NCBI GenBank assembly: GCA_965539975.1
Contig: CBETWA010000002.1
Location: 24,244 to 88,243, forward strand
Reading direction: 5' to 3'
Length of the DNA stretch: 64,000 nucleotides
Origin: an uncultured bacterium
GTDB lineage: Bacteria > Bacillota > Desulfotomaculia > Desulfotomaculales > Desulfallaceae
Both the position numbers and the translations under genes were made by a program. Positions 5,245-22,102 of the stretch are shown here, one piece after another. The stretch's first letter is position 1. Each line of letters begins with the position of its first letter. The notes under the pieces were generated by a model that was not told where the DNA came from, searched no databases, and worked only from the letters and a program-made list of their open reading frames with translations.

Positions 5245-5632
5245 TTATAGTTTTACCAACCCGGCCCGAACGGGATCGAGTTCCTCATATTTAACACAGG
5301 CAATAAGATACGCCTCGTCCACGGGATACGATATAAATCGATCCTGCCACAAATGCCCGCGCCAGGTTTCGCGCAGGCTAATCCGGCAGGTATAACGACG
5401 GTGTGCTTCCCCTATGGCACGCACCAGAGCATTTTCCGACGAAGGCACCGCTATAAAGTGCACATGGTTGGGCATGAAACAATAAGCCCATATATCCACT
5501 CCCCTGTGGGAGAACCATTTAGGCCATCAGGTCTTTGTATATTTCATAATCACGGTCATTAAAAATGTTTGAAATCGACGATACCCCCCCGTTGTATACC
5601 GTGATGGGGAACGCCGGAAACTACTACTCTCG
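5245..5632 (-). pseudogene. Decayed REP-associated tyrosine transposase (RAYT / IS200-IS605 Y1 TnpA-like)
   Basis: The 84-aa ORF has the YCFMPNHVHFI (HUH) motif and a C-terminal YI..NPVRAGLV. The upstream pieces VVVSGVPHHGIQRG and IFNDRDYEIYKDLMA are in other frames, separated by stops, so there are at least two frameshifts. Confidence 0.6.
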
Positions 5633-5701: not shown

Positions 5702-7279
5702 TTAATTCTTGTTATAAGATGGGAAAATTACTGTAAAAATCGTTCCCTTCCCTAGCTGACTCGTGGCATTTATGTTACCGCCCTGTAACTGAACCAGCTT
5801 TTTCACAATTGCCAACCCCAGGCCGCTCCCTTTTTCCTGCAGGTAACCATCACGCTGGTTCCTCACCCGGTAAAACCTGTCCCAAATGTGCGGCAGGTCT
5901 TCGGGGGCTATACCAATACCATCATCCTCAATGCTCAGCACCACCTCACCCCGGCGGGCCTCCACCTCAACCCTGACGGTGCCGTTTTCGGTGGCCCGGA
6001 TAGCATTTTTAAGCAAATTCCTGATAATCTGTTCCATCCGGTCAACATCACCGAGCACCACCGCATTTTCCGTTTTCTTCTCGAACAGAATCGAGGTATT
6101 CTTACTGTTTGCCATTGCCTCCATAGATATAACCACTCCCTGGGCTAAGGGAACCAAGTCTACCGGCAGTTTTTCCACAGTGACATCGCCGCTTTCCAGG
6201 CGGCTTAGCGCAAACATGTCATCTACCAGCCTGGTAATATGAATCGTCTGGGTATAAATTGTATCCAGGTACCTCTTCAGCAAAGCTTCATCCTGAACCA
6301 TACCGTCGCGAATAGCCTCTACAAATCCCTGAACAGCAGTTAGAGGGGTACGTAACTCATGCGATATCTCCGCAAACAACCGGGCTTTTTCTTCTTCCAT
6401 CCTGCGGCTTTCGGCATGCATCTCCCGCAGTCTCACCGCCAAATGGCTGAGCTGGCCGGCAAGGGCTTTCATTTCCTCCGGAGGTCGTTCCCCAGCGCTT
6501 AAAACATAATTCCCCCGGTTAAACTCCGCCACAGCGTTAGCCAAACTGGAAATCGGCCTGGATATCGATTGGGCCAGATAGGCGGAAATAAACAAAAAAG
6601 CCACCAACATGGCCATGCCTCCGATAACCAGATACAAACGCTGTTTGTTTAAAGCATGGTTGAGATTAACCGGGTTCGTTTCCAACATAATGCCATTTTC
6701 GATGTCGTCCCTGTTATCGTTATTACCCATGGGGACAACAGCAACAAAAATAATCTGACCCGTTTCCCGATCAACCGCCCGGGCAATCTCGGTTTCACCC
6801 TTGTTGAGCAATTCGACGAATTTTGCATCCACCTGGTTACCGGGGACCACTTCCTGCTGCGCAGAAGTGTCAATAATATTTCCTTGCCTGTCAAAGACCG
6901 TAATCCTGGTATCGAAGGTGCTGGCCAAAAATTGTAACATTTCCTGCCTACTATTAGCCTTTTCACTTGCCTGCCCGGTAGATATTCCACCCAATGCCTG
7001 GTCACTTTGCTGGAGCAAGGCAAAGTTTACCCGCTTGGCCTTGCGCAACAGATCCTGCTGGACTTGGTCATAGACTATTTGTTGCACTACATAACCGGAA
7101 AACATCGTTAGGGCAATCAGACCGAAAATAAAGGTTGTCATATTGGTAAACAGTATCCTGGTGTAAATACTTTTGCTTATTTGTTCCCGCAGCAAGCGTT
7201 TGAGAGCAAGGAAGAGCCCGCTTGCGGCACGGATTACGAAGTAAAGGCTTTCTCTACCCTGTTGGAGATAAGAACTCAC
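5702..7279 (-). CDS. Sensor histidine kinase (TM-sensor-TM, HAMP, HisKA, HATPase_c)
   Basis: H-box EISHELRTPLT, N-box LLKNAIRAT and G-boxes DDGIGI / GSGLGLAIV are present. Confidence 0.85.
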   Translation of the reverse strand: MSSYLQQGRESLYFVIRAASGLFLALKRLLREQISKSIYTRILFTNMTTFIFGLIALTMFSGYVVQQIVYDQVQQDLLRKAKRVNFALLQQSDQALGGISTGQASEKANSRQEMLQFLASTFDTRITVFDRQGNIIDTSAQQEVVPGNQVDAKFVELLNKGETEIARAVDRETGQIIFVAVVPMGNNDNRDDIENGIMLETNPVNLNHALNKQRLYLVIGGMAMLVAFLFISAYLAQSISRPISSLANAVAEFNRGNYVLSAGERPPEEMKALAGQLSHLAVRLREMHAESRRMEEEKARLFAEISHELRTPLTAVQGFVEAIRDGMVQDEALLKRYLDTIYTQTIHITRLVDDMFALSRLESGDVTVEKLPVDLVPLAQGVVISMEAMANSKNTSILFEKKTENAVVLGDVDRMEQIIRNLLKNAIRATENGTVRVEVEARRGEVVLSIEDDGIGIAPEDLPHIWDRFYRVRNQRDGYLQEKGSGLGLAIVKKLVQLQGGNINATSQLGKGTIFTVIFPSYNKN

Positions 7280-7293
7280 AATGTGATCTCTCC

Positions 7294-7989
7294 CTACTTG
7301 ACAGGAGGTGTAAACTGGTATCCCACACCCCAGACAGTTGTCAGGTATTCATGGGGCAAGGATGCTAGCTTTGCCCTCAGCCTACGAATATGTACATCCA
7401 CCGTACGCTGGTCACCGAAGTAATCATGTTCCCAAACAGCCGTTAATAGTTCTTGCCTGGTGAAAACCCGCCGGGGATTCTGGGCCAGGTAATATAGTAA
7501 ATCGAATTCTCTGGGAGTAACTTCTGTTTTTTTACCGTCAACCAAAACACTCCTATTTTCGGCCCGGATTTCCAACCCCGGGTATTTTATTTTCCAGTTC
7601 GCCGGCGAGTTAATCGGTTGGGTACGACGCAATACAGCTTTGATTCTGGCAACCAGCTCCCTGGGGCTAAAAGGCTTGGCAACATAGTCATCAGCTCCCA
7701 TTTCCAATCCTAGAACACGGTCCGCTTCTTCCCCTTTGGCTGTAAGCATGATGATGGGAACCATGCGGATCTCCCTTAAATTGCGACATAGTGTAAGCCC
7801 ATCCTTACCCGGAAGCATGATATCCAGTATTACCACATCAGGATTCTCCCGGTGAAATGCGGGCAGTACCAGGTTACCGTCGTCTACCCCAATAATTTCA
7901 AAACCTTCCCTTTCACCGTACAACTTGATAAGTTCCAGTACGGTTTGGTCATCATCAACTACCAAAACCTTGCCCAAATACGGCATCAT
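7294..7989 (-). CDS. OmpR-family response regulator
   Basis: A receiver domain (VLVVDDD...DVVILDIMLPGKDG) is followed by a winged-helix output domain (LTPREFDLLYYLAQNP...VWGVGY). It lies directly upstream of the kinase on the same strand. Confidence 0.9.
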   Translation of the reverse strand: MMPYLGKVLVVDDDQTVLELIKLYGEREGFEIIGVDDGNLVLPAFHRENPDVVILDIMLPGKDGLTLCRNLREIRMVPIIMLTAKGEEADRVLGLEMGADDYVAKPFSPRELVARIKAVLRRTQPINSPANWKIKYPGLEIRAENRSVLVDGKKTEVTPREFDLLYYLAQNPRRVFTRQELLTAVWEHDYFGDQRTVDVHIRRLRAKLASLPHEYLTTVWGVGYQFTPPVK

Positions 7990-8622
7990 CTCCCCCCAGT
8001 TCCCCCCTCAGCGAAATTTGAAGCGATCAAGTTCACATTAATTCATCCGGCATCTTCTTGATTTCCTGTACCATATTCAAAATTTTACCGAGCCATAACC
8101 GGAGGTTTTGTATGATAAACAACAAACACCCGCTAGGAGCACGGGCATTTTGGGCAGTGCCGAAGCGTTAAGCAATCAATTAAGGAATTATATACATGAT
8201 ATCGCCCAGCAACTCAATTAAATATGAAAGGTTGTTTACCGCAACGATTATATCACACCAAACTAGCGGGGAGCAATAACTTTACTTTTTTGGTTTTACA
8301 TATTTCTACAACACATGATAGGAATCGTCCAATAGCATATTCATATCCCTTGGTATCTAACATTGTACTGGTAGCGTTAGAAACCGGTCTATAACAATTG
8401 TTCACAATTATGTAAAACATGTTCATCTCTTGGAAAAAGATGCTTCACATTCTTTCATTATAATTGTCCTGTAAAGGAGGTGTACTGGTTAAATATTCCT
8501 TTAATACAAAAGTGGACAAGCCTTTCTTTTAAATTTAACATTTGGCAAACTGCCCGAGAGGTAAGGGCGCAGAGATGGAGGTTTAATGTAATGGATCTCT
8601 ATTAAGAAAGGATAGGATAAAT

Positions 8623-9867
8623 GTGCGGTTTGCTATTGCGCTTATTATTTTTCTTTTCATCTTGGGTGTTTATGAACAGATAAACCATAATAAAAACTTA
8701 AACCGGATCAATATTAGGATCAATGTAAACGGCACCAGGGGCAAATCAACTGCTACAAGATTAATTACCGCTATTTTAAAGGAAGCAGGAGCTAAGGTTG
8801 TTGGAAAAACAACGGGAACCAGTGCGAGAATTATTTATTGGAACAAGGAAGAGGAAGAACCGATCAAACGAGGCCCCTTGGGTCCAAATATTATTGAACA
8901 GAAAGCGGTCGTTAAAAAAGCAGCCAAGCTTGGTGCAACTGCATTTGTAACGGAATGTATGGCCGTAAATCCCGATTACCAGATTATTTTTCAGGAAAAG
9001 CTTGTTAAAGCTAATATTGGCGTTATTGTTAATGTTCGTGAAGATCATATGGATGTGTGCGGCCCAACTTTGGATTTTATTGCAGAGTCCTTTACGGCAA
9101 CAATACCGAAAAACGGAACTCTTATTATTAATGATAGCGAATATAATGACTATTTTACTGAAGAAGCAAAGAAAAGAAACTGCCGGGTATTAATTGCAAA
9201 TGTGCATGAAATCCCGGATGGTTACCTGGAGAAATTTAAATATGTAATTTTTCCGGAAAATGTTGCCATTGCGTTGGCTGTTGCTAAAGCGCTGAACATT
9301 AACAAAGATACTGCGTTAAGGGGAATGCTAAAAGCCAATCCCGACCCGGGTGCTTTAATGATTTATACCCTGGACAAGAAAAGCCCTACATATTTTGTCA
9401 ATGGTTTTGCCGCCAATGATCCCAATTCCACACGAATGATTTGGGAGCATATAACAACTCTTGGTTACCCGACAAAAAACCCCATGGTAATTGTAAATTG
9501 CAGGCCTGATAGGGTTGACAGGACATTACAGTTAGCGGAAGAGGTCTTACCAAACATGGATATAGATATTCTTGTTGCAATGGGTCAGATAGTAAATCCA
9601 ATTACCGAAAGGGTAAATAGTAAAAAAATATCTCCTAGGAAATATGTAAATGCTGAAGGTTTGTCTCCCCATGAGGTTTATGAAACAATCAAGGATTTTC
9701 TTAAGAACAGAGTTACTTATGGGATTGGCAATATTCATGGCGGTGGCGAGGAATTAGTTGAATTGATAATTCACGACTTCCCCACTGAATTAAGAACCCG
9801 CTTCAACAAGGAAACAGGTCAGGTGCAACCAAGTACCAAAGGAAATTTAGCCATTAAAGGAGGGTAA
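8623..9867 (+). CDS. pgsB: Poly-gamma-glutamate synthase, amide-ligase subunit PgsB/CapB
   Basis: The protein is collinear with my recollection of B. subtilis PgsB: NVNGTRGKSTATRL, ECMAVNPDYQIIFQEKL, VNVREDHMDVCGPTLD, FVNGFAANDP, NCRPDRVDRT. Confidence 0.85.
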   Translation: MRFAIALIIFLFILGVYEQINHNKNLNRINIRINVNGTRGKSTATRLITAILKEAGAKVVGKTTGTSARIIYWNKEEEEPIKRGPLGPNIIEQKAVVKKAAKLGATAFVTECMAVNPDYQIIFQEKLVKANIGVIVNVREDHMDVCGPTLDFIAESFTATIPKNGTLIINDSEYNDYFTEEAKKRNCRVLIANVHEIPDGYLEKFKYVIFPENVAIALAVAKALNINKDTALRGMLKANPDPGALMIYTLDKKSPTYFVNGFAANDPNSTRMIWEHITTLGYPTKNPMVIVNCRPDRVDRTLQLAEEVLPNMDIDILVAMGQIVNPITERVNSKKISPRKYVNAEGLSPHEVYETIKDFLKNRVTYGIGNIHGGGEELVELIIHDFPTELRTRFNKETGQVQPSTKGNLAIKGG

Positions 9868-9871
9868 GCAG

Positions 9872-10324
9872 TTGCTTGTTACCACTGTTGCCACAGTCAT
9901 CATTTTGGGTGTTGTTTTGAGCTTGTTATTTACGGAAATTACCGGAATCTTGCCTGCCGGCCTGATCGTGCCAGGATATTTAGTTTTGCTTGTGGAAACG
10001 CCCCAGGCTATACTTTTAACATTTTTAATTGGTATCTTAACTTATTTTATAGTTGCTTTCGGAGTGAGCAAAATTACAATTCTATACGGCAAAAGAAAAT
10101 TCGTAGCAATGATAGCAGTTGCAGTAGTGTTGCAGCTTATTTTATATGCAACACTACCCTTAGATTATCATTATATCTCCGGATTGGCAGCAGTTGGTCT
10201 TATTGTGCCCGGATTATTAGCAAACACGATTCAGCGTCAAGGTATAGCAATAACGCTTTTAAGCACTGTATTGTTGTGTGCAATGACTTATGGCGGCACA
10301 TTACTGTTAAATATCAATATATGA
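9872..10324 (+). CDS. pgsC: Poly-gamma-glutamate synthase membrane subunit PgsC/CapC
   Basis: The 150-aa polytopic protein contains TGILPAGLIVPGYL...ILYGKRKF...GLIVPGLLANTIQRQG, matching PgsC. Confidence 0.8.
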   Translation: MLVTTVATVIILGVVLSLLFTEITGILPAGLIVPGYLVLLVETPQAILLTFLIGILTYFIVAFGVSKITILYGKRKFVAMIAVAVVLQLILYATLPLDYHYISGLAAVGLIVPGLLANTIQRQGIAITLLSTVLLCAMTYGGTLLLNINI

Positions 10325-10339
10325 GAAAGGAGGTGTAAA

Positions 10340-10564
10340 ATGAACATTTTACACGAACCGATAAATAACAAACAATACGTGAACACACCGGAAACTATCA
10401 GAGCAAAAAGTAAGCCTGAGGTTGTTACGGTTTTTAGTACACTAACATTTAAAGAAAAATGCCTGTATCTCGTTAAAATCAGCAAGAGAAATACCGTTAT
10501 TCATGCACTTTGGCTCATGGGATTAATTCTAATGATTATTACAGCGGATTATCTGTTACCATGA
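10340..10564 (+). CDS. Small hypothetical protein with one C-terminal TM helix (positional analogue of PgsE/CapE? not PgsA)
   Basis: AGGAGG precedes the ATG. The 74-aa product has the hydrophobic segment ALWLMGLILMIITADYLL. I recognise no homology. Confidence 0.3.
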   Translation: MNILHEPINNKQYVNTPETIRAKSKPEVVTVFSTLTFKEKCLYLVKISKRNTVIHALWLMGLILMIITADYLLP

Positions 10565-10660
10565 TTCTTTAAAAAAATGGGTAAAGGGGGTGGCTACCAT
10601 ATCTCATCTTCTAGCGGGTGAACTTTTACCATGTATATGCAAGAAAGGAGCGGGATAAGT

Positions 10661-11509
10661 ATGAAAAAACAATTTCTCAAAATTGCGGCTTTAGTTACGT
10701 TGTTAACATTTGGTATTGGTTTTAGCGCATATGCCTTCACATCAGGTTATAGTAGTTTTGCTGAACTAGCTGCAGCTGAAGATCCTTCAAACTATAACAT
10801 TAAAACCAATGTTGTCGGAAGCAATACAACAATTTTGGCTATACACGGAGGCGGTATTGAAAGGGGCACTTCAGAAGTAGTTGAGGCACTGGGCAGGACC
10901 GGTAAATATAACACTTATTTATTTGAAGGACTTAAAGCAACCGATAATGGGAGCCTATTTATAAAGGCTATTAATTTTGACGAACCAAAAGCCGTTAGCT
11001 TAGTTAATCAATCAGATTACACTGTTTCTGTTATCGGAGCCGCCGGCGACGACGAAGTTACTTATGTTGGCGGTCAGAATAAGTTACTGGCAGAATTGGT
11101 GAGGTTACACCTTACCACTGAGGGATATAATGTAAAAACTTTAAGTATTCCTGATCGCATTGCCGGGGTTATGGACAGCAATATAGTGAATAAGAATAAA
11201 TTGTTTAAAGGCAGTTATAAGCTCGGCGGCGTTCAGATCGCTATTTCCAAAGGGCTAAGGGATAAGCTCGTGGCTGAACCCGACACGTTAAATAATTATT
11301 CGGGCGCCATTGATCAAGCCCTTAGTCAAAGCTGGCCAACAATAGTTAAACTCATGAATAAGGTCAATGCTGATAAAGGTCAAGGGTTTTTAAATAGATT
11401 TAACCCTGACAAGCCCAACTTCGATAAGAAAATTAAAAAAGTATTAGAGAAAGGCGCCAATAACCCCGATCAATTAATTGATAATGTTAAAAAAGTAACG
11501 GAAGAGTAA
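10661..11509 (+). CDS. PghP-family (poly-gamma-glutamate hydrolase, DUF867/YjqB-like) secreted protein with a C-terminal extension
   Basis: A signal-like N-terminus starts at MKKQFLKIAALVTLL. Family motifs AIHGGGIERGTSE, YLFEGLK and FDEP are present. The ATG at 10661 with GGAG upstream is preferred. Confidence 0.7.
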   Translation: MKKQFLKIAALVTLLTFGIGFSAYAFTSGYSSFAELAAAEDPSNYNIKTNVVGSNTTILAIHGGGIERGTSEVVEALGRTGKYNTYLFEGLKATDNGSLFIKAINFDEPKAVSLVNQSDYTVSVIGAAGDDEVTYVGGQNKLLAELVRLHLTTEGYNVKTLSIPDRIAGVMDSNIVNKNKLFKGSYKLGGVQIAISKGLRDKLVAEPDTLNNYSGAIDQALSQSWPTIVKLMNKVNADKGQGFLNRFNPDKPNFDKKIKKVLEKGANNPDQLIDNVKKVTEE

Positions 11510-11530
11510 TCTGAAAAAATATTTAAAAAT

Positions 11531-11576
11531 AGGCGGGACAAGCTGACAAGATAGCTTGGCCCGCCTATATCTTTAT
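11531..11576 (+). terminator. Rho-independent terminator after the first PghP-like gene
   Basis: A 13/14-bp stem (AGGCGGGACAAGCT / AGCTTGGCCCGCCT) with an 8-nt loop is followed by a T-rich tail. Confidence 0.7.
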
Positions 11577-11580
11577 TAAG

Positions 11581-12699
11581 TTGTACAACTAAGCTTCTCT
11601 CCTGACACTTTTTGAACGCTTAGTTTCCATCTGTTCCATATACTGGTTGATGGTTTCGATAGGTCTTCTACCCATATTTCGATATCCGCGGTGGGGACGT
11701 TCATTATTATAGTGGTATAGCCATTGATCAAAGTCGTTTTGTAAGGATTCAACGCTCTCAAAGAGTTTTTCACGGAAAACAACCCTAAAAAACTCTTCCA
11801 GGGCTGTCTTATTGAAACGCTCAACGAAACCATTGGTTTGAGGTCTACCAACTCTGGTTCTGCGATGTTCAATGTCGTTTAAAGCCAGGTATATCTCGTA
11901 TGGATGTGCTTGTGTTCCACAGTATTCACGACCATTATCCGTAAGTACTACCGATACGGTAATACCCCTGTCTTCATAAAAGGGTAGAACATCATTGTGA
12001 AGAACCGCTACAGCGCACTCCGGCAATTTGCCTGTATGAAGGAATCCAAAAGCATAGCTGCCATAGGTATCAACCACGGCTTGCATGTATACTCTGCCTA
12101 CACCTTTTAAGCTACCTACGTAAAAGGTGTCCTGAGCCAGTAATTCACCAGGTCGGCTGCTTTCAATATGGCGTTCACGAAAGCAGGGATTTGCTTTTTC
12201 AATAAGTGCGATTTGCTCAGCTGTAAGTTCGATAGGCTCTTTGGCGGCTTTCTCTTCAAGTTTTAAGAGCCGTTCGTACTTTGTGCCCATGTTATTTTTA
12301 ATCAAGATATTCTGTATGGTCGGAGAACTAACGTTTATTCCCTGCAGCTTTAGCATATCGCTAAGCTTTACACAACCCCAACCAGGGTGCTGAAGGCTTA
12401 AGGACAGTATCTTTTCCACCACCTCGGGTGGTGTGGTCTGGGGATGGCTTTTGTGAATAGGCGGGAGATCTTTTAAACCTTCAAGCCCGTGAGTTTGAAA
12501 ACGACGCTTGTACTCGTAAAACTGTGTCCTTGTCATACCGCGTTGTTTACATGCCTGGGAGACATTTCCCAAGGCTTCAGCCAGTTGCAACACGCTTAAA
12601 CGTTGACGGGCGACTTTTTCGGATGGATCCACTTTATCAACTCCTCCCATAACGTAATTTTACCAGTTAATTTGTTACGGGAGAAGCTTAGTAGTACAA
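11581..12699 (-). mobile_element. IS481-family insertion sequence (complete)
   Basis: The 19-bp terminal inverted repeats are TTGTACAACTAAGCTTCTC (11581-11599) and GAGAAGCTTAGTAGTACAA (12681-12699), with one mismatch. They enclose a single DDE transposase ORF. A possible TAAG duplication flanks the element. Confidence 0.85.
11589..12650 (-). CDS. IS481-family DDE transposase (HTH plus rve integrase core)
   Basis: The N-terminal HTH is LSVLQLAEALGNVSQACKQRGMTRTQFYEYKRRF. The core contains DTFYVG...TDNGREY...RPQTNGFVERFN. Confidence 0.9.
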   Translation of the reverse strand: MGGVDKVDPSEKVARQRLSVLQLAEALGNVSQACKQRGMTRTQFYEYKRRFQTHGLEGLKDLPPIHKSHPQTTPPEVVEKILSLSLQHPGWGCVKLSDMLKLQGINVSSPTIQNILIKNNMGTKYERLLKLEEKAAKEPIELTAEQIALIEKANPCFRERHIESSRPGELLAQDTFYVGSLKGVGRVYMQAVVDTYGSYAFGFLHTGKLPECAVAVLHNDVLPFYEDRGITVSVVLTDNGREYCGTQAHPYEIYLALNDIEHRRTRVGRPQTNGFVERFNKTALEEFFRVVFREKLFESVESLQNDFDQWLYHYNNERPHRGYRNMGRRPIETINQYMEQMETKRSKSVRREA

Positions 12700-12705
12700 A
12701 TAAGT

Positions 12706-13452
12706 TTATTTATTGTTGACTGCTTCACTTATTGCGAGAACATAGCTATTCAAGGTATCTTTATTAGTTGACAAAAACTTTTTCCTTAAACCCTTCGATA
12801 TTTCTATCTGTACTCCTTGTCCGTCTATATTTTTATTCACTATGTTATCCGGCGACATGCCGTCCAGATTCTTCGGAGCATCTTTCACAGTAAAACCATA
12901 CTTCGTGAGAGATTCTTTTATTCTGTTTGCCAATTCAGTATCCCGTCCTCCGATATATGTGAATTCCTTTTCGCCGTCACACCCGTGGATTGATAATGTA
13001 ATTTTAGATTCGGAAACCATTTGCAGTGCAGCTGCTTCGGCAAATTTGTCTGAGGGGACATGTAATGAAAAATTATCTGTGCTTTTTAAGCCCTGAAATG
13101 AATAATAGTTGTAATTATTATGGGAAGCTAAGGCATAAGCTAATTCGGTAGTGCCTTTTTCAATTTTACCTCCATGAATAGCCACAACTGCAACATTAGA
13201 ATCGGTTACATTAGCTTCAATTTCATAATCAACATCCACACTCGTTTGAAAATCCAACAATCTTTTTAAATCATTAATTTCATTTTTTTGTGCTTTTATT
13301 TTTTCATTAGCGATATCCAATTGTTTTTCTAGTGCCTTATTCTTATCTTCCAATTTTGCACTTTCGTATTTTACATAACCTAAATAACCTAACAATAAAA
13401 AAAATAATAAAGTAAATACATTAATTAATGTAACTTGCCTTCTTATATTCAT
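12706..13452 (-). CDS. PghP-family poly-gamma-glutamate hydrolase-like protein, membrane-anchored with a coiled coil
   Basis: An N-terminal TM segment and coiled coil are followed by AIHGGKIEKGTTE, YSFQGLK, SIHGCDGE and GVQIEISKGLR. The predicted metal triad H..E...H is intact. Confidence 0.7.
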   Translation of the reverse strand: MNIRRQVTLINVFTLLFFLLLGYLGYVKYESAKLEDKNKALEKQLDIANEKIKAQKNEINDLKRLLDFQTSVDVDYEIEANVTDSNVAVVAIHGGKIEKGTTELAYALASHNNYNYYSFQGLKSTDNFSLHVPSDKFAEAAALQMVSESKITLSIHGCDGEKEFTYIGGRDTELANRIKESLTKYGFTVKDAPKNLDGMSPDNIVNKNIDGQGVQIEISKGLRKKFLSTNKDTLNSYVLAISEAVNNK

Positions 13453-13532
13453 TTCTTTCCTCCACTAACAAGTGCTTATTAAACTTAAGAAGCCCTCGCT
13501 TGAGGGCCTTTTTGGTCATTTAATCCAACTGC

Positions 13533-13765
13533 TCATTGAGCATATCGTCTTGCTCCAACATATAGTGGACTCCAATGACTATCTGAGATATTAAGGTCAC
13601 GAATTGCTACACCTTCGGACTCTGTTATAATGATAAACTGCTCACTCCCAATATACAATATCGGTAGTAGCACCTTGCTGAATCCCTCAAAGAATAAAAC
13701 ATCTCCAATATTTAAATCTTCCCTTTTATTTCTATTCCTAAAGCCCGTTGTTGAGATAAATATCT
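13533..13765 (-). pseudogene. C-terminal remnant of an NlpC/P60-type (PgdS-like?) peptidase domain
   Basis: My hand translation gives ...NIGDVLFFEGFSKVLLPILYIGSEQFIIITESEGVAIRDLNISDSHWSPLYVGARRYAQ*. There is no ATG, no catalytic Cys region, and an upstream in-frame stop. Confidence 0.35.
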
Positions 13766-13806
13766 TGGTGAATCAATATCTAAACCTGCTTTCGTAACGT
13801 ATTCAG

Positions 13807-14751
13807 TCAACAATTCAGCATGGTGTCCCCGAAATTTTTGGTAAACCGGCCCACAATCTCCTCGTCAGTGATGAAAGTGCGAAAGGCTTTGGAAACCAGG
13901 CTTTCCTTGCCGGGACGGTTCCAGGCCAGGTAAAGCTCGTAACTGAATTTCACCCCCGGGACGGTTATCTCTCCTAGGGCGTCCTTTTCCAACAGCTCCG
14001 CCACCGCCCAGCGGGAAACCACCCCGAAGCCCAGGCCCAGACGGACGGCGTTGATTACTGCCTGGGTACTGCCCATTTCTAACACCCCCGCAAACTGGTC
14101 CAGAGAAATATTGTGTTTGAATAGTTCACGCTCCAGGGCCTGCCTGCTGCCGGAACCCGCTTCCCGTACGATGATGGACTCATTGGTCAGAGCCGCCAGG
14201 GGAACCTCCTCCCCCTTCAGCGGGTACCAGGGAGGGGTGACCACCACCATTTGGTCGGTTATCCATGGCTCGCACTCCACTCCTTCGGCTTTAACGGGAT
14301 ACCCCGTAACTCCAATTTCGATTTCACGTTCTTTCAGCCAGTGAGCCACCTGTGCACTGCCACCCACCTGCAGGCTTACGGTAACCCCGGGGAATTGTTC
14401 CCGAAAACCGCCGATGGCCATGGGCAGCAGGCATTCCCCCGCCACCGGCACAGCACCCAGCGCCAGGTGCCCCGCCTTTACCTCCCGCAGGGCATCTATA
14501 CCAGCCTTGATCTTATTATACATTCTTACCATTTGCAGAGCGTTGGGGTATAGCAACCTGCCCGCCTCGGTAAGAACCACCTTTTTATCTGTGCGCTCGA
14601 ACAAAGTTATGTCCAGTTCCTCTTCCAGTGACTTAATTTGAAAGCTGATGGCAGGCTGGCTCATATCAAGCTGTGCCGCCGCGCGAGTGAAATTTTTCAG
14701 CTGGGCAACCAGTAGAAAGGCTTCAAGCTGTTTTATATTCAAAGTAATCAC
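13807..14751 (-). CDS. LysR-family transcriptional regulator
   Basis: The N-terminal HTH is LEAFLLVAQLKNFTRAAAQLDMSQPAISFQIKSLEEEL, followed by a LysR substrate-binding fold. Confidence 0.85.
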   Translation of the reverse strand: MITLNIKQLEAFLLVAQLKNFTRAAAQLDMSQPAISFQIKSLEEELDITLFERTDKKVVLTEAGRLLYPNALQMVRMYNKIKAGIDALREVKAGHLALGAVPVAGECLLPMAIGGFREQFPGVTVSLQVGGSAQVAHWLKEREIEIGVTGYPVKAEGVECEPWITDQMVVVTPPWYPLKGEEVPLAALTNESIIVREAGSGSRQALERELFKHNISLDQFAGVLEMGSTQAVINAVRLGLGFGVVSRWAVAELLEKDALGEITVPGVKFSYELYLAWNRPGKESLVSKAFRTFITDEEIVGRFTKNFGDTMLNC

Positions 14752-14983: not shown

Positions 14984-16156
14984 TTATGCCGACTGCTTGA
15001 CGTACTCTCTCTCACTTGCCACCAGTACGTCTTCTTTCTTATGTCCATGCATGATGTTAAAGTTTTCCACAACAAACAGGTATACCAGAACCCCGATGCA
15101 CACAAGCCCGATGCTGATTCCCCATTCAACCAAGGACGGGAAATATGAACCGCCCATGGACCGGGACATGCCGGTGAATACGACGTTCATGCGGTTGAGC
15201 ACAACCCCGCCCACCACCAGCAAACTGAAGGCGGTAAGCCCGGTTTTGGTGGATAGAAGCCCCGGGATGAAACAAATTACCAGAGGAATGATAACGCCCA
15301 GCACCATTTCCAGCAGGAACATGTTTCCTTCCAGGTTGCCCTGGAATACCAACCCGGCAGCCCCGCGGTAAAACAGGTCCCCGATCTTGAGCCCGAGATA
15401 AACCAGCAACATATATCCCGAAATCTTAGCCATTTTCTGCAGGATATCGTATTCAGGCCTGTGACCATGCGCCCTGCTACCCAGCAACGATTCGAGGGTA
15501 ACCATGGCCGGACCCACAAAAAATGAAGACAGCAGGAAAAATAGTGGTAACAGCATGGACCACCACAACGGGTACAACTTGCCCACCTCAATCACGTAAA
15601 GGGAACCCAGGGAAGACTGGTGCAGCGTGGGAAGCACTATACCAATAATGAGCAGTATGGGCATAATTTTCTTGAAAAACCCGTGCCATTTCTTTTTCAC
15701 CTTTTCCGTAGCCACTTCGCCGAACTCCAGGAGCTGAACCATGGTGTAAAGTGAAACACACCAGAACACTTCGAACAAAACACTGTGGTAACCCCAGGAT
15801 ACAAACGGCCTCCAGAAATTGAACCAGCGGCCGATGTCCATAAACAGGCCGGCCATGACCAGTAAGTAACCGATTAGTGATGTAAGCATAGCGCTTCTGG
15901 CTATTGGCGAGAATTTCTTTATATGCAGCACGTGCACCAGAAGTGCCGTTCCATATCCCCCACCGGCCAGCGCAACACCGACAAGAACATCGAAGCCGAT
16001 CCACAAACCCCAGGGCCACTGGTCGTTAAGATTTGTCGCGCTGCCCAGGCCGAAAATCAACCTGTAAATCATGAGCATCACAGTCAACCCGGCCATGCCC
16101 ATTAGCGCCACCCTAAACGGGGTAATTTTGAAACTCCACCTATTTGTAGCAGACAT
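14984..16156 (-). CDS. NrfD/HybB/PsrC-family integral membrane (quinone-interacting) subunit
   Basis: It is polytopic with about 10 TM segments and begins FKITPFRVALM..WPWGLWIGFDVLVGVALAGGGY, typical of the NrfD family. The ATG at 16156 after GGGAGG is preferred. Confidence 0.75.
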   Translation of the reverse strand: MSATNRWSFKITPFRVALMGMAGLTVMLMIYRLIFGLGSATNLNDQWPWGLWIGFDVLVGVALAGGGYGTALLVHVLHIKKFSPIARSAMLTSLIGYLLVMAGLFMDIGRWFNFWRPFVSWGYHSVLFEVFWCVSLYTMVQLLEFGEVATEKVKKKWHGFFKKIMPILLIIGIVLPTLHQSSLGSLYVIEVGKLYPLWWSMLLPLFFLLSSFFVGPAMVTLESLLGSRAHGHRPEYDILQKMAKISGYMLLVYLGLKIGDLFYRGAAGLVFQGNLEGNMFLLEMVLGVIIPLVICFIPGLLSTKTGLTAFSLLVVGGVVLNRMNVVFTGMSRSMGGSYFPSLVEWGISIGLVCIGVLVYLFVVENFNIMHGHKKEDVLVASEREYVKQSA

Positions 16157-16252
16157 CAGACATTTACCTCCCAACATGATATAACCACCGGTTTTGTACC
16201 GGCCATATATTCAAAACAATTGCCCGGCGGCCAGTCATATGTTTAACCGCTG

Positions 16253-17065
16253 TTAATTTTTCTTCTTCTTGCCGCTTTTCTTTATCTTTTCTTCTTTCAG
16301 AATCTTTTCTTCCCGGGCTATTTCATTGCGCCGCCGGTTATAAACGTACAACCCCGTCAACAGGGCACCCCAGCCGAGTCCAACTGCCGGTGTCAATCTC
16401 AGAATGCTCTCACTGTAGTGAGGCAGCGGCGTGGTGGTGATGCCGGTGCGGAATCCAAGCTGTTCAAAAGGAACATCGGAAATATACATCCAGGTTGTCC
16501 CTCCGGCTTCCTTTTCGCCGTATATGTGTTTTATGTAGTTGCCGCTGCTTATTCTATTGCGTGCTTCTTTAAGCAGTTCTTCACGTTCACCAAATTCCAG
16601 CGCACCCGCCGGGCAAACTCCCATGCAGGCCGGCATGTCGCCGCTTTTAATACGATCCGGGCACATCTGACACTTGCGTACCCGTGGGAATGCTTTGTCC
16701 CACTCGTACTTGGGAATATTGAACGGGCAGGCCAGCATGCAGTAGCGGCATCCCACACAAAGATCCACGTTGTAAACAACCGGCCCTTCAGGTGTTTTTA
16801 CTATCGCCCTGGAAAAACAGGCCGAAGCGCAGGCCGGTTCGAGGCAATGCAAGCACTGGTTTTTCGCAAACCGCCAGGCGCGTTCTTTCTCATTGCCGGC
16901 TTCCACCAAACTTACAACCGTCCAGTTTTCGGACGCCAGCACGGCATCTTTACCGGTGGACGGCTGGTTCTTTTCGTGTTTCAGGCCGTTCCACATTTTA
17001 CAGGCCACCACGCAGCTGCCGCACCCCACGCACTTGGTTATATCGACAAGCACACCTTTTGCCAC
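16253..17065 (-). CDS. 4x[4Fe-4S] ferredoxin-type electron-transfer subunit (HybA/NrfC/DmsB-like) with a C-terminal TM anchor
   Basis: Four Cys clusters are present: CVGCGSCVVAC, CLHCLEPACASAC, CVGCRYCMLACP, CQMCPDR..CMGVCP. The C-terminal hydrophobic helix is LTPAVGLGWGALLTGLYVY. Confidence 0.85.
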   Translation of the reverse strand: MAKGVLVDITKCVGCGSCVVACKMWNGLKHEKNQPSTGKDAVLASENWTVVSLVEAGNEKERAWRFAKNQCLHCLEPACASACFSRAIVKTPEGPVVYNVDLCVGCRYCMLACPFNIPKYEWDKAFPRVRKCQMCPDRIKSGDMPACMGVCPAGALEFGEREELLKEARNRISSGNYIKHIYGEKEAGGTTWMYISDVPFEQLGFRTGITTTPLPHYSESILRLTPAVGLGWGALLTGLYVYNRRRNEIAREEKILKEEKIKKSGKKKKN

Positions 17066-17081
17066 CGCCGGTCACCTCCCA

Positions 17082-18704
17082 TCAAACCACCCGTTGCAGC
17101 TTTTCTTCAGCTGCCAGCGGCTTGTATTTTTTGCTGCGATCGACGTAGCTGGTATGCAACAGCTCTTCAGCCAGCTCGCTCATCGGGTGTTGCAGGAAAT
17201 TCTTGTACAGGGCCAGCACTTCCGCATTTTCATGGCTTTCTCGTAAAACCATTTTGGAATCTACCTTGTACAGACTGTCAATCCTCATTTTCCGCACCTC
17301 ATCACTGGGCGGTACCGAGGATCTGGGTTGGCCTCCGCCGCTTATACAACCACCCGGGCAGGACATGAACTCAACAAAATGCCATGGTGCCTTGCCGCTG
17401 CGCACTGTTTCCAATACCTGCCTGCCATTGCTCATTCCGTGACAAACGGCAACGCGAAGTGTTCCCACTCCGGGGATATCCACCGCCGCTTCCTTTACTC
17501 CTTCCAGGCCACGGACCGGTGTCAGTGACAAAAGACCGGCCGGAGGCTCTTTTTGAGTAATAAAATAATACGCCGTCCGCACCGCCGCTTCCATAACCCC
17601 ACCGGTGGCACCGAAGATGAGTGCGCCGCCGGTACTCATGCCTAGCAGGGGGTCGTAATTCTCCTCAGGAAGAGAAATCAAATCGATACCCTGTTTTTTT
17701 AACAGCCGGGCCAGTTCCCTGGTGGTAAGCACGGCATCCACGTCCCGCAATGACGGCTTGTTCCAGTAATGAGCGCTTCCGTTCATTTCCGGCCGCCCCG
17801 CTTCAAACTTCTTTGCGGTACAGGGCATGATGGATACTACAAAAATTTTTTCCGGGTCTATGCCTTTGACCTTGGCGTAATATGTTTTCACCAGCGCCCC
17901 CAGCATCTGCTGCGGAGACTTGCAGGTGGAAAGGTTGGGGAACAAATCGGGATAAAAATACTCGCAGAACTTGACCCAACCCGGGCTGCACGAAGTGAAC
18001 TGGGGTAGAGGCTTGTCGATGTCTCCCTTGATCCTCTTAATCAGTTCGGTGGCCTCTTCCATGATTGTCAGGTCGGCGGTGAAATTGGTGTCAAATACGG
18101 CGTCGAAACCCAGGCGCTTTAAGGCGGCAACCTGTTGCCCCATTACCCAGGTTCCCGGCGGCAGCCCGAACTCCTCGCCCAGGGATACCCTTGTGGCCGG
18201 AGCAGTCTGCACGACCACTATCTTGTTCGGGTCATGCAGGGCGTCTAAAACCACGCCGGTATCGTCCCTCTCGGTTATCGCCGCGGTGGGGCACCACAAA
18301 GCGCATTGCCCGCAATTGATGCATACGATTTCATCCATAAGGGGAAAACCATAATATCCATATACCGTTTGGGTGTTTTTGCACACTTCCAGGCACTGGC
18401 CGCAGAGCACGCACTTTTCATCATCCCTTACAATGGACGGGTTGTTATCGTCAATGGGTACCCTGCCGCGCACCTGGGCCGGCCAGGTTCCGGTTCCCTG
18501 GTACTGGTGGGGCAACCACCCCTCACCACCGGCGCTGCCGGTTACACCGGCCGCCCCGCACCCGGCCAGGCTGGCAGTAATGCCCACCAGCCCGAGGCCG
18601 CCCATCATCTTCATAAAGGCTCGCCTGGTTACTTTTTTTTCCAATATAAACTGGTCTTTTATATGGTCGTCATCATGTCCGCCACAATGCAAGCGGTCTG
18701 TCAT
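17082..18704 (-). CDS. hydA: Tat-exported (periplasm-facing) [FeFe]-hydrogenase catalytic subunit
   Basis: The twin-arginine signal is TRRAFMKMMGGLGLVGITASLAGCGA. There are two ferredoxin-like CxxCxxCxxxC motifs and H-cluster motifs FTSCSPGW, MPCTAKKFE and EFMSCPGGCISGGGQP. Confidence 0.9.
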   Translation of the reverse strand: MTDRLHCGGHDDDHIKDQFILEKKVTRRAFMKMMGGLGLVGITASLAGCGAAGVTGSAGGEGWLPHQYQGTGTWPAQVRGRVPIDDNNPSIVRDDEKCVLCGQCLEVCKNTQTVYGYYGFPLMDEIVCINCGQCALWCPTAAITERDDTGVVLDALHDPNKIVVVQTAPATRVSLGEEFGLPPGTWVMGQQVAALKRLGFDAVFDTNFTADLTIMEEATELIKRIKGDIDKPLPQFTSCSPGWVKFCEYFYPDLFPNLSTCKSPQQMLGALVKTYYAKVKGIDPEKIFVVSIMPCTAKKFEAGRPEMNGSAHYWNKPSLRDVDAVLTTRELARLLKKQGIDLISLPEENYDPLLGMSTGGALIFGATGGVMEAAVRTAYYFITQKEPPAGLLSLTPVRGLEGVKEAAVDIPGVGTLRVAVCHGMSNGRQVLETVRSGKAPWHFVEFMSCPGGCISGGGQPRSSVPPSDEVRKMRIDSLYKVDSKMVLRESHENAEVLALYKNFLQHPMSELAEELLHTSYVDRSKKYKPLAAEEKLQRVV

Positions 18705-18845
18705 ATCGGTTCCTCCTTAGCGCTTCCAACATACTCCACGCAACGGTTTAATAATAAAAACACAGCCTGGCTGAACAGCCGGTAAATCACCGGTCCAGCC
18801 CAAATGGTAAGCTAAATCATAAAATATTGCCGGTTGGTGTATTAA

Positions 18846-19628: not shown

Positions 19629-19680
19629 TTCCGTTTCATGAGCTATTTTTACCGCCCCCCTTAACCGCCAATTGATTTAA

Positions 19681-19926
19681 TTAATTGGTTAAACTGGTAT
19701 TCTTGGAAACAGAGGCGGCTGCAACACTGTCATCAGTACCTTTTTGGGCGGTACTGTTCCGGTCTGCCTTTTCATCGTCATCATTGCCGGAAAAGGCGCT
19801 TCTCATATCCCGCATGGTTTTACCCAGTGCTTTTCCCACTTCGGGCAGTTTACCAGGGCCAAATACAATAAGAACCACAACCAGGATGAGAAGCAGGTGC
19901 GAAGGTTGGAACAGGCCATTAAACAT
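19681..19926 (-). CDS. tatA: Twin-arginine translocase subunit TatA/E
   Basis: It has a single N-terminal TM plus amphipathic helix: LLLILVVVLIVFGPGKLPEVGKALGKTMRDMRSAF. Confidence 0.85.
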   Translation of the reverse strand: MFNGLFQPSHLLLILVVVLIVFGPGKLPEVGKALGKTMRDMRSAFSGNDDDEKADRNSTAQKGTDDSVAAASVSKNTSLTN

Positions 19927-20351: not shown

Positions 20352-20381
20352 GAATCGCCAATCACGAAAGGGGTAAGGCAG

Positions 20382-22101: not shown

Positions 22102-22102
22102 C

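Follow-up and report, generated by a model that had tools for sequence, protein, structure and literature searches.

How might a locus that encodes the poly-gamma-glutamate (PGA) synthase subunits PgsB and PgsC, and no recognizable pgsA, make and export its polymer? The stretch of DNA analyzed here, 64 kb in full and hereafter called the window, holds such a locus. From its sequence we regard positions 5702-13806, with moderate confidence, as a horizontally acquired copy of a conserved PGA synthesis-and-trimming cassette of anaerobic spore-forming Firmicutes.

Synthase genes and the pgsA slot

The operon opens with pgsB (8623..9867, forward strand), which starts with GTG and encodes a 414-aa synthase ligase subunit with an N-terminal membrane helix and a Mur_ligase_M domain. 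It matches the equivalog model TIGR04012 over its full length (534 bits, cut-off 223; profile positions 5-380 of 380). The next gene, pgsC (9872..10324, forward strand), encodes a membrane subunit of 150 aa recognized by TIGR04011 (135 bits) and PF14102 (E 1.6e-33). PgsB is 72-91% identical among the cassette loci, 55.5% identical to Bacillales-type PgsB and 50.7% to Eubacterium-type PgsB; the cassette PgsB and PgsC are nearest to the Bacillales-type pair, whose PgsA bears the matching N-terminus described below. An earlier note on this DNA cited the view that PgsA is necessary for export and elongation, a view now outdated, given that a B. subtilis strain deleted for pgsBCA and supplied with pgsBC alone produced L-rich PGA at 26 g/L (PMC6029982). 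Because of their equivalog-level membership and this precedent for PgsBC-only synthesis and export, PgsB and PgsC would be expected to polymerize glutamate at the membrane.

Tblastn with genuine PgsA and GGT as queries gave no match in the 64-kb window, Pfam annotation of about 30 of its larger ORFs returned no PgsA/CapA, and an HMM of 120 PF09587 proteins matched none of its stop-to-stop segments of at least 60 aa. All three approaches (tblastn, precomputed Pfam annotations and the 120-sequence HMM) recovered positive controls, those of the HMM being in loci L015 and L016. PF09587 is likewise absent within ~10 kb in 21 of 21 related cassette loci; across the window and roughly 450 kb of cassette loci the searches returned neither PF09587 nor GGT, and the 64-kb window has no GGT/CapD gene. 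The HMM check proposed in the earlier note, run on the window and related loci, thus returned no PgsA/CapA, and the window does lack a PF09587 PgsA as claimed. The locus is probably not wholly PgsA-less, since its 74-aa ORF resembles the PgsA N-terminal anchor.

This small ORF (10340..10564, forward strand; GGAGG ribosome-binding site 7 nt upstream) encodes a tail-anchored membrane protein and fills the slot where pgsA begins in canonical operons. The core of the protein, L[ST]LKEK[CY]LY[LF][VI]K.SK[RK]NT, is followed by one transmembrane helix, and an ORF of 41-77 aa occupies the same position in all 21 related loci. Variation in the core amounts to 0.27 at codon position 3 versus 0.07 at position 2, and by this measure the ORF is under purifying selection. 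It has no Pfam or NCBIfam match. An HMM of the small-ORF family does match the N-terminus of a genuine PgsA, P0347 (E 1.4e-6, 27 bits), and positions 5-55 of the PF09587-protein HMM repeatedly align to small ORFs, every match being weak. The similarity spans a motif of ~35 residues, with P0347 as the one strong match: one further sequence reached 19 bits, profile-profile comparison gave a modest result (P 2e-4, probability 47%), and clostridial PgsA N-termini gave weak scores. The small ORF thus probably encodes, as a protein of its own, a homolog of the N-terminal anchor of PgsA, and we infer, with moderate support, that the 41-77 aa protein may be a PgsA remnant that kept the cytoplasmic helix and anchor and lost the PF09587 ectodomain.

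The last gene of the operon encodes PghP1 (10661..11509, forward strand; PF05908, E 2e-45), whose ORF opens at 10631 and whose likely start at 10661 gives 282 aa; the N-terminus resembles a signal peptide, and the C-terminus is prolonged by ~80 aa of conserved, helical sequence. The best structural matches of its AlphaFold2 model (pLDDT 86) are PghL (5onj; TM 0.88, rmsd 1.7 A), 21dc and PghP (3a9l). All orthologs carry the substitutions H78F, T80K/R, S81A, H103I/V and E165A/S/G and retain H40, E45 and R171; a second clade has lost Glu45 as well. His103 and Glu165 are missing in 86 of the 86 closest homologs (at least 40% identity) and kept in 29 of 29 more distant ones. Activity depends on His103 and Glu165; in PghP, replacement of His78, Thr80, His103 or Glu165 by Ala, each singly, damages the enzyme, and Thr80-to-Ala nearly abolishes activity (PMC6506827). 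Since PghP1 has lost a zinc ligand and the catalytic base while keeping the fold and the substrate-anchoring Arg171, it would bind the polymer and not cut it, and is probably a non-catalytic polyglutamate-binding protein. Once exported, it may bind PGA and hold, guide or measure the nascent chain outside the membrane. The earlier suggestion that another island protein acts in place of PgsA has thereby gained concrete candidates.

It is possible, though doubtful, that a minimal PgsBC core performs all synthesis and export and that the small ORF and PghP1 are no PgsA substitutes. PghP1 would then be a regulator or inhibitor of PghP2, the second PghP-type protein of the locus, or a chain-length ruler or a PGA sensor feeding the kinase, and the small ORF an unrelated membrane peptide. 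Pseudoenzymes commonly regulate active paralogs, a conserved sensor kinase accompanies the cassette, the similarity of the small ORF to PgsA is short, and the B. subtilis strain described above managed with pgsBC alone. However, in about 20 genera and in two deep clades the synthesis operon strictly keeps the small ORF and PghP1, always in that order and directly after pgsC; PghP2 forms a separate convergent transcription unit, and the match to the genuine PgsA N-terminus argues against an unrelated peptide.

Extent, integrity and spread of the cassette

The earlier note placed an AT-rich island at 8060-13806, with GC of roughly one-third by eye. Computed GC is 0.386 there versus 0.520 across the remaining window (500-bp windows: 0.31-0.45 within, 0.47-0.64 beyond), so that a clear deviation and its edges are borne out and one-third proves somewhat low as a mean. 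Those limits do not delimit the unit: DNA homology with relatives spans 5702-13806, including the histidine kinase and response regulator genes, stopping on the left at 5702 and on the right at the LysR stop codon. The listed gene content was recovered (intact pgsB and pgsC, the 74-aa ORF, two PF05908 genes, an IS481 element and an NlpC/P60 remnant), and the gene identities (TIGR04012, TIGR04011, PF05908) support a PGA synthesis-plus-turnover module.

Its reading as a horizontal module also gains support from a composition unlike that of the host, from mobile-element remains that flank and interrupt the unit, and from a genomic context that differs in every genome examined. Cassette GC is 0.34-0.39 in 12 of 12 loci measured, regardless of the GC of the flanks. 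An IS200-like Y1 transposase fragment (5245..5499, reverse strand; PF01797, E 2e-7, profile positions 42-117 of 121) lies just beyond the left end of the conserved block; together with the IS481 copy and the truncated gene it marks the borders, which we count toward horizontal acquisition. A search for a clean empty site of the cassette found none. Where a two-component pair is linked in Desulfotomaculia (the window, L002, L004, L005 and L018), GC is ~0.49 in the pair and ~0.37 in the pgs genes, so the unit is a compositional mosaic.

The sensor histidine kinase (5702..7279, reverse strand; 525 aa, HisKA and HATPase_c), itself encoded at GC 0.49, has a weak Cache_WalK match in its extracytoplasmic part and is 50-84% identical to cassette-adjoining kinases of other genomes. 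The OmpR-type response regulator (7294..7989, reverse strand; 231 aa, Response_reg and Trans_reg_C), divergent from pgsB, is 73-91% identical to cassette-linked regulators in at least 16 related loci. Alignment of the regions upstream of pgsB in the window and 17 related loci showed that, within 420 bp, conservation in 80% or more of the sequences is confined to a block at 8393..8464 (forward strand) and the ribosome-binding site. The block comprises two palindromes, AACAATTGTT at 8393-8402 and AACATGTT at 8416-8423, at a spacing of 22 bp, and a TATAAT at 8459-8464 without a good -35 box, and is conserved wherever the two-component genes lie. It is a predicted operator site for the response regulator; kinase and regulator may thus switch on the conserved promoter, which would drive pgsB-pgsC-small ORF-pghP1.

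Some parts of this copy have been damaged. A GC-rich hairpin between the convergent pghP genes (11529..11568; 16-nt arms, 94% complementary), conserved in L004 and L001, is a likely two-way terminator. Beyond it, in the spacer between the two genes, sits an IS481-family element of 1119 bp (11581..12699, reverse strand; NF033577, 247 bits, cut-off 224) with its transposase gene at 11589-12650 (reverse strand), 27-nt inverted repeats at 11581-11607 and 12673-12699, and flanks reading ttaag / IS / ataag. It is absent at this spot from all relatives compared, and in L004 the segments matching window positions 8601-11582 and 12701-13811 are contiguous. The insertion between the convergent genes would be harmless. 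At the right end lies a pseudogene (13533..13804, reverse strand), a frameshifted remnant whose two reading frames correspond to residues 589-676 of a PgdS-like NlpC/P60 protein that in L004 has 681 aa and five domains; the Cys-bearing fourth domain is gone.

That the island is a decaying, silent passenger, AT-rich foreign DNA out of use, is unlikely. It would fit the IS481 element, the truncated and frameshifted NlpC/P60 gene, the transposase fragment at the left border and a GC far under the host level; but each of the seven remaining genes is full length and has a start codon and a ribosome-binding site, the insertion lies in non-coding DNA, the promoter block is intact, and several relatives (L017, L021 and L022) also have no NlpC/P60 gene called within 10 kb. 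This genome retains an intact synthesis operon, an intact PghP2 gene and an intact two-component pair.

The 21 related loci examined belong to Desulfotomaculia, Clostridia and Dethiobacter, and all of them have two to four of the pgsB, pgsC, small-ORF, PghP-like and convergent PghP-like genes in common. The order pgsB-pgsC-small ORF-PghP1, with convergent PghP2 next, is common to them (L005 ends inside pghP1), and at least 16 of the 21 have the two-component pair beside the cassette, arranged in at least three ways. Carriers include Pelotomaculum, Desulfotruncus, Desulfocucumis, Desulfoscipio, Desulfitobacterium, Geosporobacter, Clostridium formicaceticum, Alkaliphilus, Sedimentibacter, Dethiobacter and Oxobacter. 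Given these loci and about 86 protein clusters of PghP1 (90% identity), the cassette is no peculiarity of this genome. Only 19 species outside the Bacillales had both pghP and pgsB in the count of Mamberti et al. (PMC4497714), whose section on the pgsB/pghP correlation describes no operon like this one. The cassette thus appears widespread in anaerobic Firmicutes and previously undescribed, and should make and trim PGA without a full PgsA.

A normal PgsBCA synthase with pgsA elsewhere in the genome, making the island PgsA-less in appearance only, is distinctly improbable. CapA-family (PF09587) proteins are very common (2488 matches from one query) and in related anaerobes can lie apart from pgsBC (PMC8982180), and the window is 64 kb of this genome; yet none of the 22 loci, the window included, has PF09587 nearby, canonical operons carry pgsA directly 3' of pgsC, a conserved alternative occupies that slot here, and a mobile cassette needing a host-encoded partner would be unlikely to spread over classes.

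Polymer cleavage and polymer type

The earlier note counted two PghP-family hydrolases, which holds for PghP2, with its catalytic residues kept, and fails for PghP1, a conserved pseudoenzyme. PghP2 (12706..13452, reverse strand) is a PghP-type zinc gamma-glutamyl hydrolase (PF05908, E 3e-56; PDB matches 21dc, 3a9l and 5onj) that retains H40, E45, H78, S81, H103, E165 and R171, and it is predicted to be membrane-anchored through an N-terminal helix and coiled-coil stalk. PghP2 may cut PGA for release, size control or re-use, and in other genomes the five-domain PgdS-like NlpC/P60 protein may also cut it. The product is probably L-rich, since PGA from PgsA-less B. subtilis is L-rich and PghP-type enzymes cut L-Glu stretches, PghL being specific for L-Glu (PMC6506827); a D-containing polymer would match the PgdS-like gene that is common among relatives, which weakens this inference.

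Position 80 of PghP2 is Pro, not Thr, at the site where Thr-to-Ala nearly abolished PghP activity, an observation that counts against our preferred explanation.

That PghP1 is an enzyme with altered chemistry (a CapD-like wall-attaching transpeptidase, or a metal-independent lyase or hydrolase) is very unlikely: it keeps His40, Glu45, Arg171 and the overall groove, and the cassette has no GGT/CapD for anchoring, but all orthologs carry non-functional side chains in place of the four residues whose single loss damages PghP, no nucleophile is gained at those positions, and Glu45 too is lost in the second clade.

Comparison with known systems

As in the Bacillus PgsBCA(E)/CapBCA(E) operons, equivalog-level PgsB and PgsC lead the cassette operon in the same order, and a gene for a polymer-cleaving enzyme lies next to the synthase genes, like pgdS or capD downstream of those operons; many cassette copies also carry a PgdS-like multi-NlpC/P60 protein. 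Unlike those operons, the cassette lacks the PF09587 PgsA ectodomain, PgsE/YwtC (PF26359) and GGT/CapD, its pgsA slot holds the anchor-like peptide of 41-77 aa and then the PghP-fold pseudoenzyme, it comes with a dedicated two-component system, and its hosts are strict anaerobes.

The small membrane subunit PgsE/CapE is also a single-helix peptide of a pgs operon. We rejected PgsE/YwtC as an identity for the 74-aa ORF, which has no PF26359 match and the reverse topology: the YwtC-like protein of L025 begins with its helix and ends in a charged tail, but in the island peptide a conserved, charged motif stands at the N-terminus and the helix at the C-terminus. What this peptide resembles is the PgsA N-terminus.

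Both island PghP proteins belong to the family of PghP and PghL (YndL), phage-derived zinc gamma-PGA hydrolases (MEROPS M86, PF05908). In PghP2 the zinc-binding residues His40, Glu45 and His103 are present, as is the catalytic Glu165, along with His78 and Arg171, and the PghP1 model superposes on PghL. Unlike the known enzymes, the island proteins are encoded on the chromosome, in operon linkage to a synthase, and bear export signals; their genes are not phage or prophage genes, and PghP1 lacks His78, Thr80, His103 and Glu165 and has its C-terminal extension.

The functional precedent for a natural PgsA-less arrangement is the engineered pgsBC strain of B. subtilis (Sawada et al. 2018, PMC6029982), in which PgsBC without PgsA make and export PGA with a D/L ratio of 5/95. 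That strain relies on artificial over-expression and includes neither a small anchor peptide nor a pseudoenzyme nor linked hydrolases, whereas the cassette is a natural, conserved and regulated arrangement.

Gene content, distribution and upstream region of the cassette

We class this feature as a regulated PgsBC system without a local PgsA ectodomain, whose place is taken by an anchor-like peptide and a probable PghP-fold pseudoenzyme. All the genes that an earlier note had named from the sequence alone were found. The product of pgsB (8623-9867) matches TIGR04012 at 534 bits against a cut-off of 223, over profile positions 5-380 of 380, and contains the Mur-ligase ATP-binding domain PF08245; that of pgsC (9872-10324) matches TIGR04011 (135 bits against a cut-off of 96) and PF14102 (116 bits), and both proteins are full-length equivalogs above the curated cut-offs. 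Downstream lie a 74-aa small ORF (10340-10564) matching no family, pghP1 (plus strand, from 10631 or 10661 to 11509), an IS481 transposase gene (11589-12650, minus strand; NF033577, 247 bits against a cut-off of 224), the convergent pghP2 (12706-13452, minus strand) and, between pghP2 and the LysR stop codon, the C-terminal remnant of an NlpC/P60 gene. PghP1 and PghP2 both score far above the gathering threshold of PF05908.

A PgsB scan taking one genome per species returned 13 loci, with PgsB 77-91% identical, in Desulfotruncus, Desulfocucumis, Pelotomaculum, Geosporobacter, Dethiobacter, Sedimentibacter, Alkaliphilus and other Bacillota. The order pgsB, pgsC, small-ORF homolog, PghP1 and opposite-strand PghP2 is common to 13 of 13, one of which (L005) ends inside PghP1; an NlpC/P60 gene is present in most, and kinase and regulator homologs adjoin most. 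Eight more loci carry the same set according to Pfam annotation, in Oxobacter pfennigii, Desulfoscipio gibsoniae, Clostridium formicaceticum, Desulfitobacterium hafniense and contigs from sequencing runs. The response regulator is 73-91% identical across cassette loci, a conservation equal to that of PgsB. Its gene lies upstream of the pgs genes, either divergent from them or in tandem, or else follows the NlpC/P60 gene. In D. gibsoniae (locus L018, CP003273, 4219-7565), three genes lie between the two-component pair and pgsB; their products are a protein with a Cu_amine_oxidN1 domain, a metallophosphoesterase (PF00149) and a protein with a DAC (diadenylate cyclase) domain.

When the 420 bp before pgsB were aligned for 18 sequences (the window and 17 related loci), only the ribosome-binding site and a block at 8393-8464 were conserved at a level of at least 80%. 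Two palindromes 22 bp apart, AACAATTGTT and AACATGTT, and a TATAAT element lie in the block, which has no recognisable -35 and looks like an activator-dependent promoter. The linked OmpR-type regulator may bind this block, and the two-component system would thereby control the pgs operon. Over 7900-13900, no riboswitch or other known RNA matched Rfam at E <= 1; promoter and terminator scans gave counts not above those of shuffled sequence and were therefore used only to note hairpins. The leader of ~150 nt from TATAAT to pgsB (8470-8622) is well kept in many relatives (AAAAGTGGACAAGC...TTGGCAAACTGCCCGA...TAATGTAATGGAT) and largely deleted in L018, in L004 (one of the window's nearest relatives) and in Sedimentibacter-type loci; it holds an open frame of ~40 codons that follows a GGAGG and whose GTG start is poorly spaced.

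Composition, borders and state of the copy in the window

The sharp fall in GC seen by eye in the earlier note is borne out: GC is 0.386 over 8060-13806 and 0.520 in the remainder of the window, and 500-bp windows drop from 0.47-0.49 to 0.35-0.40 near 8000 and return to 0.55-0.61 near 13800. The AT-rich block thus stands as first delimited, but the conserved unit is larger, at 5702-13806. Over that span the cassette DNA is 85-87% identical between the window and its nearest relatives (L004, L002 and L005), the match being broken only by 11583-12700 and, in the spacer before pgsB, by a brief run of divergence at ~8297-8390; the kinase and regulator therefore belong to the conserved block. On the left this block ends at the stop codon of the kinase gene, beside a fragment of an IS200-like transposase.

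The GC of the pgs and pgh genes is 0.33-0.39 in nearly every host, with flanks of either 0.32 or 0.48. The surroundings of the cassette are unrelated from genome to genome, the flanks differing in all genomes compared, and traces of mobility at or within it comprise a Y1 transposase fragment, the IS481 copy and a truncated border gene. Horizontal acquisition, as proposed earlier, is supported by host-unlike GC, by the mobility remains at the borders and by a context that varies among relatives. A LysR-based search yielded no clean empty site: in L024, whose source is closely related to the window's host, synteny is confined to the LysR and hydrogenase side, the other flank differs, and the cassette sits on another contig of that genome.

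The cassette is also a compositional mosaic, as a comparison of window positions 5702-7989 with 8623-13452, together with the loci L002, L004, L005, L018 and L021, makes clear. In the window, L002, L004, L005 and L018 the two-component genes have a host-like GC of ~0.49 and GC3 of 0.5-0.6; in the same Desulfotomaculia loci, with their linked two-component pair, the pgs and pgh genes have a GC of ~0.37 and a GC3 of ~0.3. Both halves of the cassette share 85-87% DNA identity among these Desulfotomaculia genomes, and in Desulfitobacterium hafniense the entire cassette is GC-rich (0.50-0.57). With such a mosaic, "recent arrival" is too simple a description.

Immediately to the right of the island (14984-24765), after the LysR gene, come genes for an [FeFe]-hydrogenase and its NrfD-like and 4Fe-4S partners, for TatC and for maturases of the HydF, HydE and HydG type; this region is syntenic with L024 and with the compared locus L023. 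Further along, a 554-aa ORF (37007-38671, minus strand) has no Pfam match at E <= 0.001.

All cassette genes except the NlpC/P60 gene are full length in the window. The IS481 element (11581-12699, 1119 bp), assigned to its family by a DDE transposase above the cut-off and by terminal inverted repeats of 27 nt that are 85% complementary, has the flanks ttaag and ataag, a possible target-site duplication that is exact over 4 bp and has one mismatch if counted as 5 bp; it sits in the spacer of the convergent pghP genes, past their shared hairpin, and breaks no reading frame. What the earlier note had called an NlpC/P60 remnant proved to be a frameshifted C-terminal stub, corresponding to residues 589-676 (the last 88 residues' worth) of the 681-aa protein of L004, with homology that stops exactly at the LysR stop codon; its match to PF00877 covers just the C-terminal portion of that profile and, at 22.4 bits, stays under the cut-off of 23. 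An intact NlpC/P60 domain with its catalytic Cys is not retained in the window and is found in L004, L018 and the related loci L001 and L020. PgdS-like proteins with five NlpC/P60 domains are encoded at L004 13777-15822, L001 14039-16150 and L020 11726-14080. In those of L004 and L001 the fourth domain alone has the Cys motif (GFDCS), the rest reading GFNSTG, GFDHSG or GFNTTN, and most PgdS-like domains therefore also look non-catalytic.

The small ORF, the two PghP homologs and the local absence of PgsA

The earlier observation that no PgsA/CapA-like ORF is present holds for the whole 64 kb. No PgsA was found there by tblastn with a genuine PgsA query, and no PF09587 by Pfam on the ~30 larger window ORFs or by a 120-protein HMM run over all stop-to-stop segments; tblastn with a GGT query likewise found no GGT. 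The HMM recovered the PgsA genes of the canonical controls L015 and L016, and the PgsA of a third control, L025, was recovered by the PgsA searches (tblastn, Pfam, HMM). Across 21 related cassette loci, tblastn, Pfam and the 120-sequence HMM detected no PF09587, and in the eight further Pfam-annotated loci neither PF09587 nor GGT occurs within 10 kb. CapD-like GGT (PF01019) is missing from the window and the cassette loci and present in L015, L016 and L025. A PgsA query of the protein database gave 2488 matches, from which the 120-protein PF09587 HMM was built, and no carrier species appears among the best 120 of them.

Two Metallophos proteins were considered as PgsA candidates and rejected. 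The 366-aa protein encoded upstream of pgsB in D. gibsoniae belongs to PF00149, not PF09587, and no such gene is called in the other Pfam-annotated cassette loci. For window ORF 54577-55692, its size and an 819-aa neighbour suggest, by eye, an SbcD-type nuclease beside an SbcC-type partner rather than PgsA. Among the controls, a stop or frameshift divides pgsA of the Eubacterium MAG L015 (11603-12895) into two ORFs, 167 and 241 aa long, whereas pgsA of L016 is intact.

The small ORF, with a GGAGG site 7 nt 5' of it, is present in 21 of 21 related loci at a length of 41-77 aa. An invariant-looking core, L[ST]LKEK[CY]LY[LF][VI]K.SK[RK]NT, precedes one hydrophobic helix, and codon differences within the core fall on position 3 at 0.27 against 0.07 on position 2. 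Only three matches exist in a set of 5.8 billion proteins, because annotators mostly leave it uncalled; tblastn finds it in every locus. In Alkaliphilus pronyensis (L013) two small ORFs stand in tandem (11811-12056 and 12217-12465), the first without a hydrophobic tail. The small ORF does not match PgsE/YwtC: at E <= 0.01 neither Pfam, PF26359 included, nor NCBIfam gives a match to the 74-aa ORF. PF26359 does detect the YwtC-like protein of L025, and the topology of the small ORF is opposite to that of this protein.

An unexpected resemblance to PgsA emerged instead. With the HMM of PF09587 proteins the small ORFs were matched repeatedly, if weakly, and always at HMM positions 5-55, the PgsA N-terminus. 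Conversely, and more clearly, an HMM of 18 small ORFs matched residues 9-42 (FTFQEKVLMFIKKTKPNTGKQALLL) of P0347, a genuine 414-aa PF09587 PgsA from a canonical pgsB-pgsC-pgsA-ggt-ywtC-ggt operon adjoining comK, with E 1.4e-6 in a set of ~2900 sequences. Other results support this more weakly. Clostridial PgsA proteins carry KLSLKQRMQILSRRDRMG and a helix in the same register, with a profile-profile (hhalign) P of 2e-4 at a probability of only 47%. The motif with a helix after it occurs in 23 of 92 full-length PgsA proteins, in 2 of 966 background ORFs and in none of 261 PghP-family proteins. The B. subtilis PgsA N-terminus scores 18.9 bits, a lead only. The cassette PgsB and PgsC are 55.5% and 51.5% identical to the L025 pair, against 50.7% and 34.7% for the Eubacterium-type pair, and the small ORF fills the gene slot directly after pgsC. 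Taken together, the N-terminal matches, the kinship to the L025 pair and this slot make descent from pgsA more likely than not, and we lean towards reading the small ORF as a remnant of that gene.

The catalytic positions of PghP1 and PghP2 were placed by alignment with PghP (3a9l), PghL/YndL (5onj) and 21dc. In PghP numbering the zinc ligands are His40, Glu45 and His103; Ala substitution at His40, Glu45, His78, His103 or Glu165 impairs activity, Thr80Ala nearly abolishes it, Glu165 is the counterpart of carboxypeptidase A Glu270, and PghL Arg171 anchors the substrate (PMC6506827). PghP2 and its orthologs retain all functional residues save position 80, which is Pro or Ser in some and Pro in the window. 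PghP1 and its orthologs, by contrast, read His40, Glu45, Phe78, Lys/Arg80, Ala81, Ile/Val103, Ala/Ser/Gly165 and Arg171, and the window protein, with F78, K80, I103 and A165, does not have the full M86 set of residues for zinc binding and activity. The description of both as PghP-family hydrolase homologs thus stands for family membership and for the catalytic residues of PghP2, but not for those of PghP1. Position 83, altered in PghP1 as well, was set aside as evidence for a pseudoenzyme, since it is variable across the whole family. PghP2 itself comes in two forms: in the window, L001-L004 and L008-L011 it combines a membrane helix with a ~45-residue coiled coil, and in L006, L007, L012 and L013 it has a plain signal peptide.

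Among 115 database homologs of PghP1, His103 and Glu165 are missing in all 86 with at least 40% identity, and all 29 that are more distant keep both. An exhaustive search of 1.84 billion cluster representatives gave 1436 relatives, and of the best 148 examined ~11, nearly all top-ranked, have neither residue. No exact match to the window protein is on record. Oxobacter and others form a deeper, second clade at 40-48% identity, which has the same cassette context and has lost Glu45, His103 and Glu165. PghP1 proteins are 62-86% identical to each other, which indicates strong constraint, and the PghP fold is retained: the AlphaFold2 model (pLDDT 86) matches 5onj, 21dc and 3a9l, fits PghL at a TM of 0.88 and an rmsd of 1.7 A, and has an extra, conserved helical extension at its C-terminus. 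By eye, the N-terminus resembles a Sec signal peptide (MKKQFLKIAALVTLLTFGIGFSAYA before F). On these residue losses PghP1 is probably a PghP-fold pseudoenzyme; the changes in its groove, with one acidic residue lost and one basic residue gained, would suit the binding of a polyanion, and its ligand may be PGA.

Relation to known polyglutamate systems

The outline of a PGA synthesis and turnover module, drawn in the earlier note, stands and is sharpened by the anchor-like peptide, the probable PghP-fold pseudoenzyme and the attached PghP hydrolase of active type. The view that PgsA is necessary, which that note cited, is out of date: PgsA has variously been claimed to be essential, stimulatory or dispensable, and pgsBC without pgsA gave 26 g/L PGA in B. 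subtilis, with a D/L ratio of 5/95 (Sawada et al., PMC6029982), so over-expression of a minimal BC core is already known to be productive. We infer that the cassette makes PGA and that its product would be L-rich. A previous survey counted only 19 non-Bacillales species in which pghP accompanies pgsB, and its section on the correlation of the two genes describes no operon (Mamberti et al., PMC4497714). In the literature covered by our search, neither the cassette nor a PghP-family pseudoenzyme nor the small ORF is described, and the copy of the PDB that was searched has no structure of PgsB or of a PgsBCA complex.

It is conceivable, if rather doubtful, that a PGA-hydrolase fold without its metal site serves as the outer subunit of the synthase in place of the PgsA ectodomain, the N-terminal anchor of PgsA persisting as a 40-residue peptide of its own that continues to dock to PgsBC. 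If so, the cassette would be a natural domain-swap experiment separating the two parts of PgsA, in which the anchor is what the synthase needs and the ectodomain a replaceable polymer-handling module whose loss shifts the product to L-PGA. No part of polyglutamate synthesis is less well understood than the role of PgsA, and a natural, widely conserved pairing of an anchor-like peptide with a probably dead hydrolase would offer a direct route to two questions: which portion of PgsA matters to the synthase, and what handles the polymer outside the cell. The cassette further suggests that PGA producers have gone unnoticed among syntrophic, sulfate-reducing and acetogenic anaerobes, it offers biotechnology a compact, probably L-PGA-specific gene set, and ~86 database clusters labelled "poly-gamma-glutamate hydrolase family protein" are probably no hydrolases.

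Canonical systems consist of pgsBCA(E) followed by pgdS or capD, and examples of such operons were recovered in L015, L016 and L025. The cassette differs from a Cap-type capsule locus, where a CapD-like GGT serves for anchoring, in having no such gene, and from canonical PgsBCA(E), where a PF09587 PgsA accompanies pgsBC, in carrying pgsBC locally without it.
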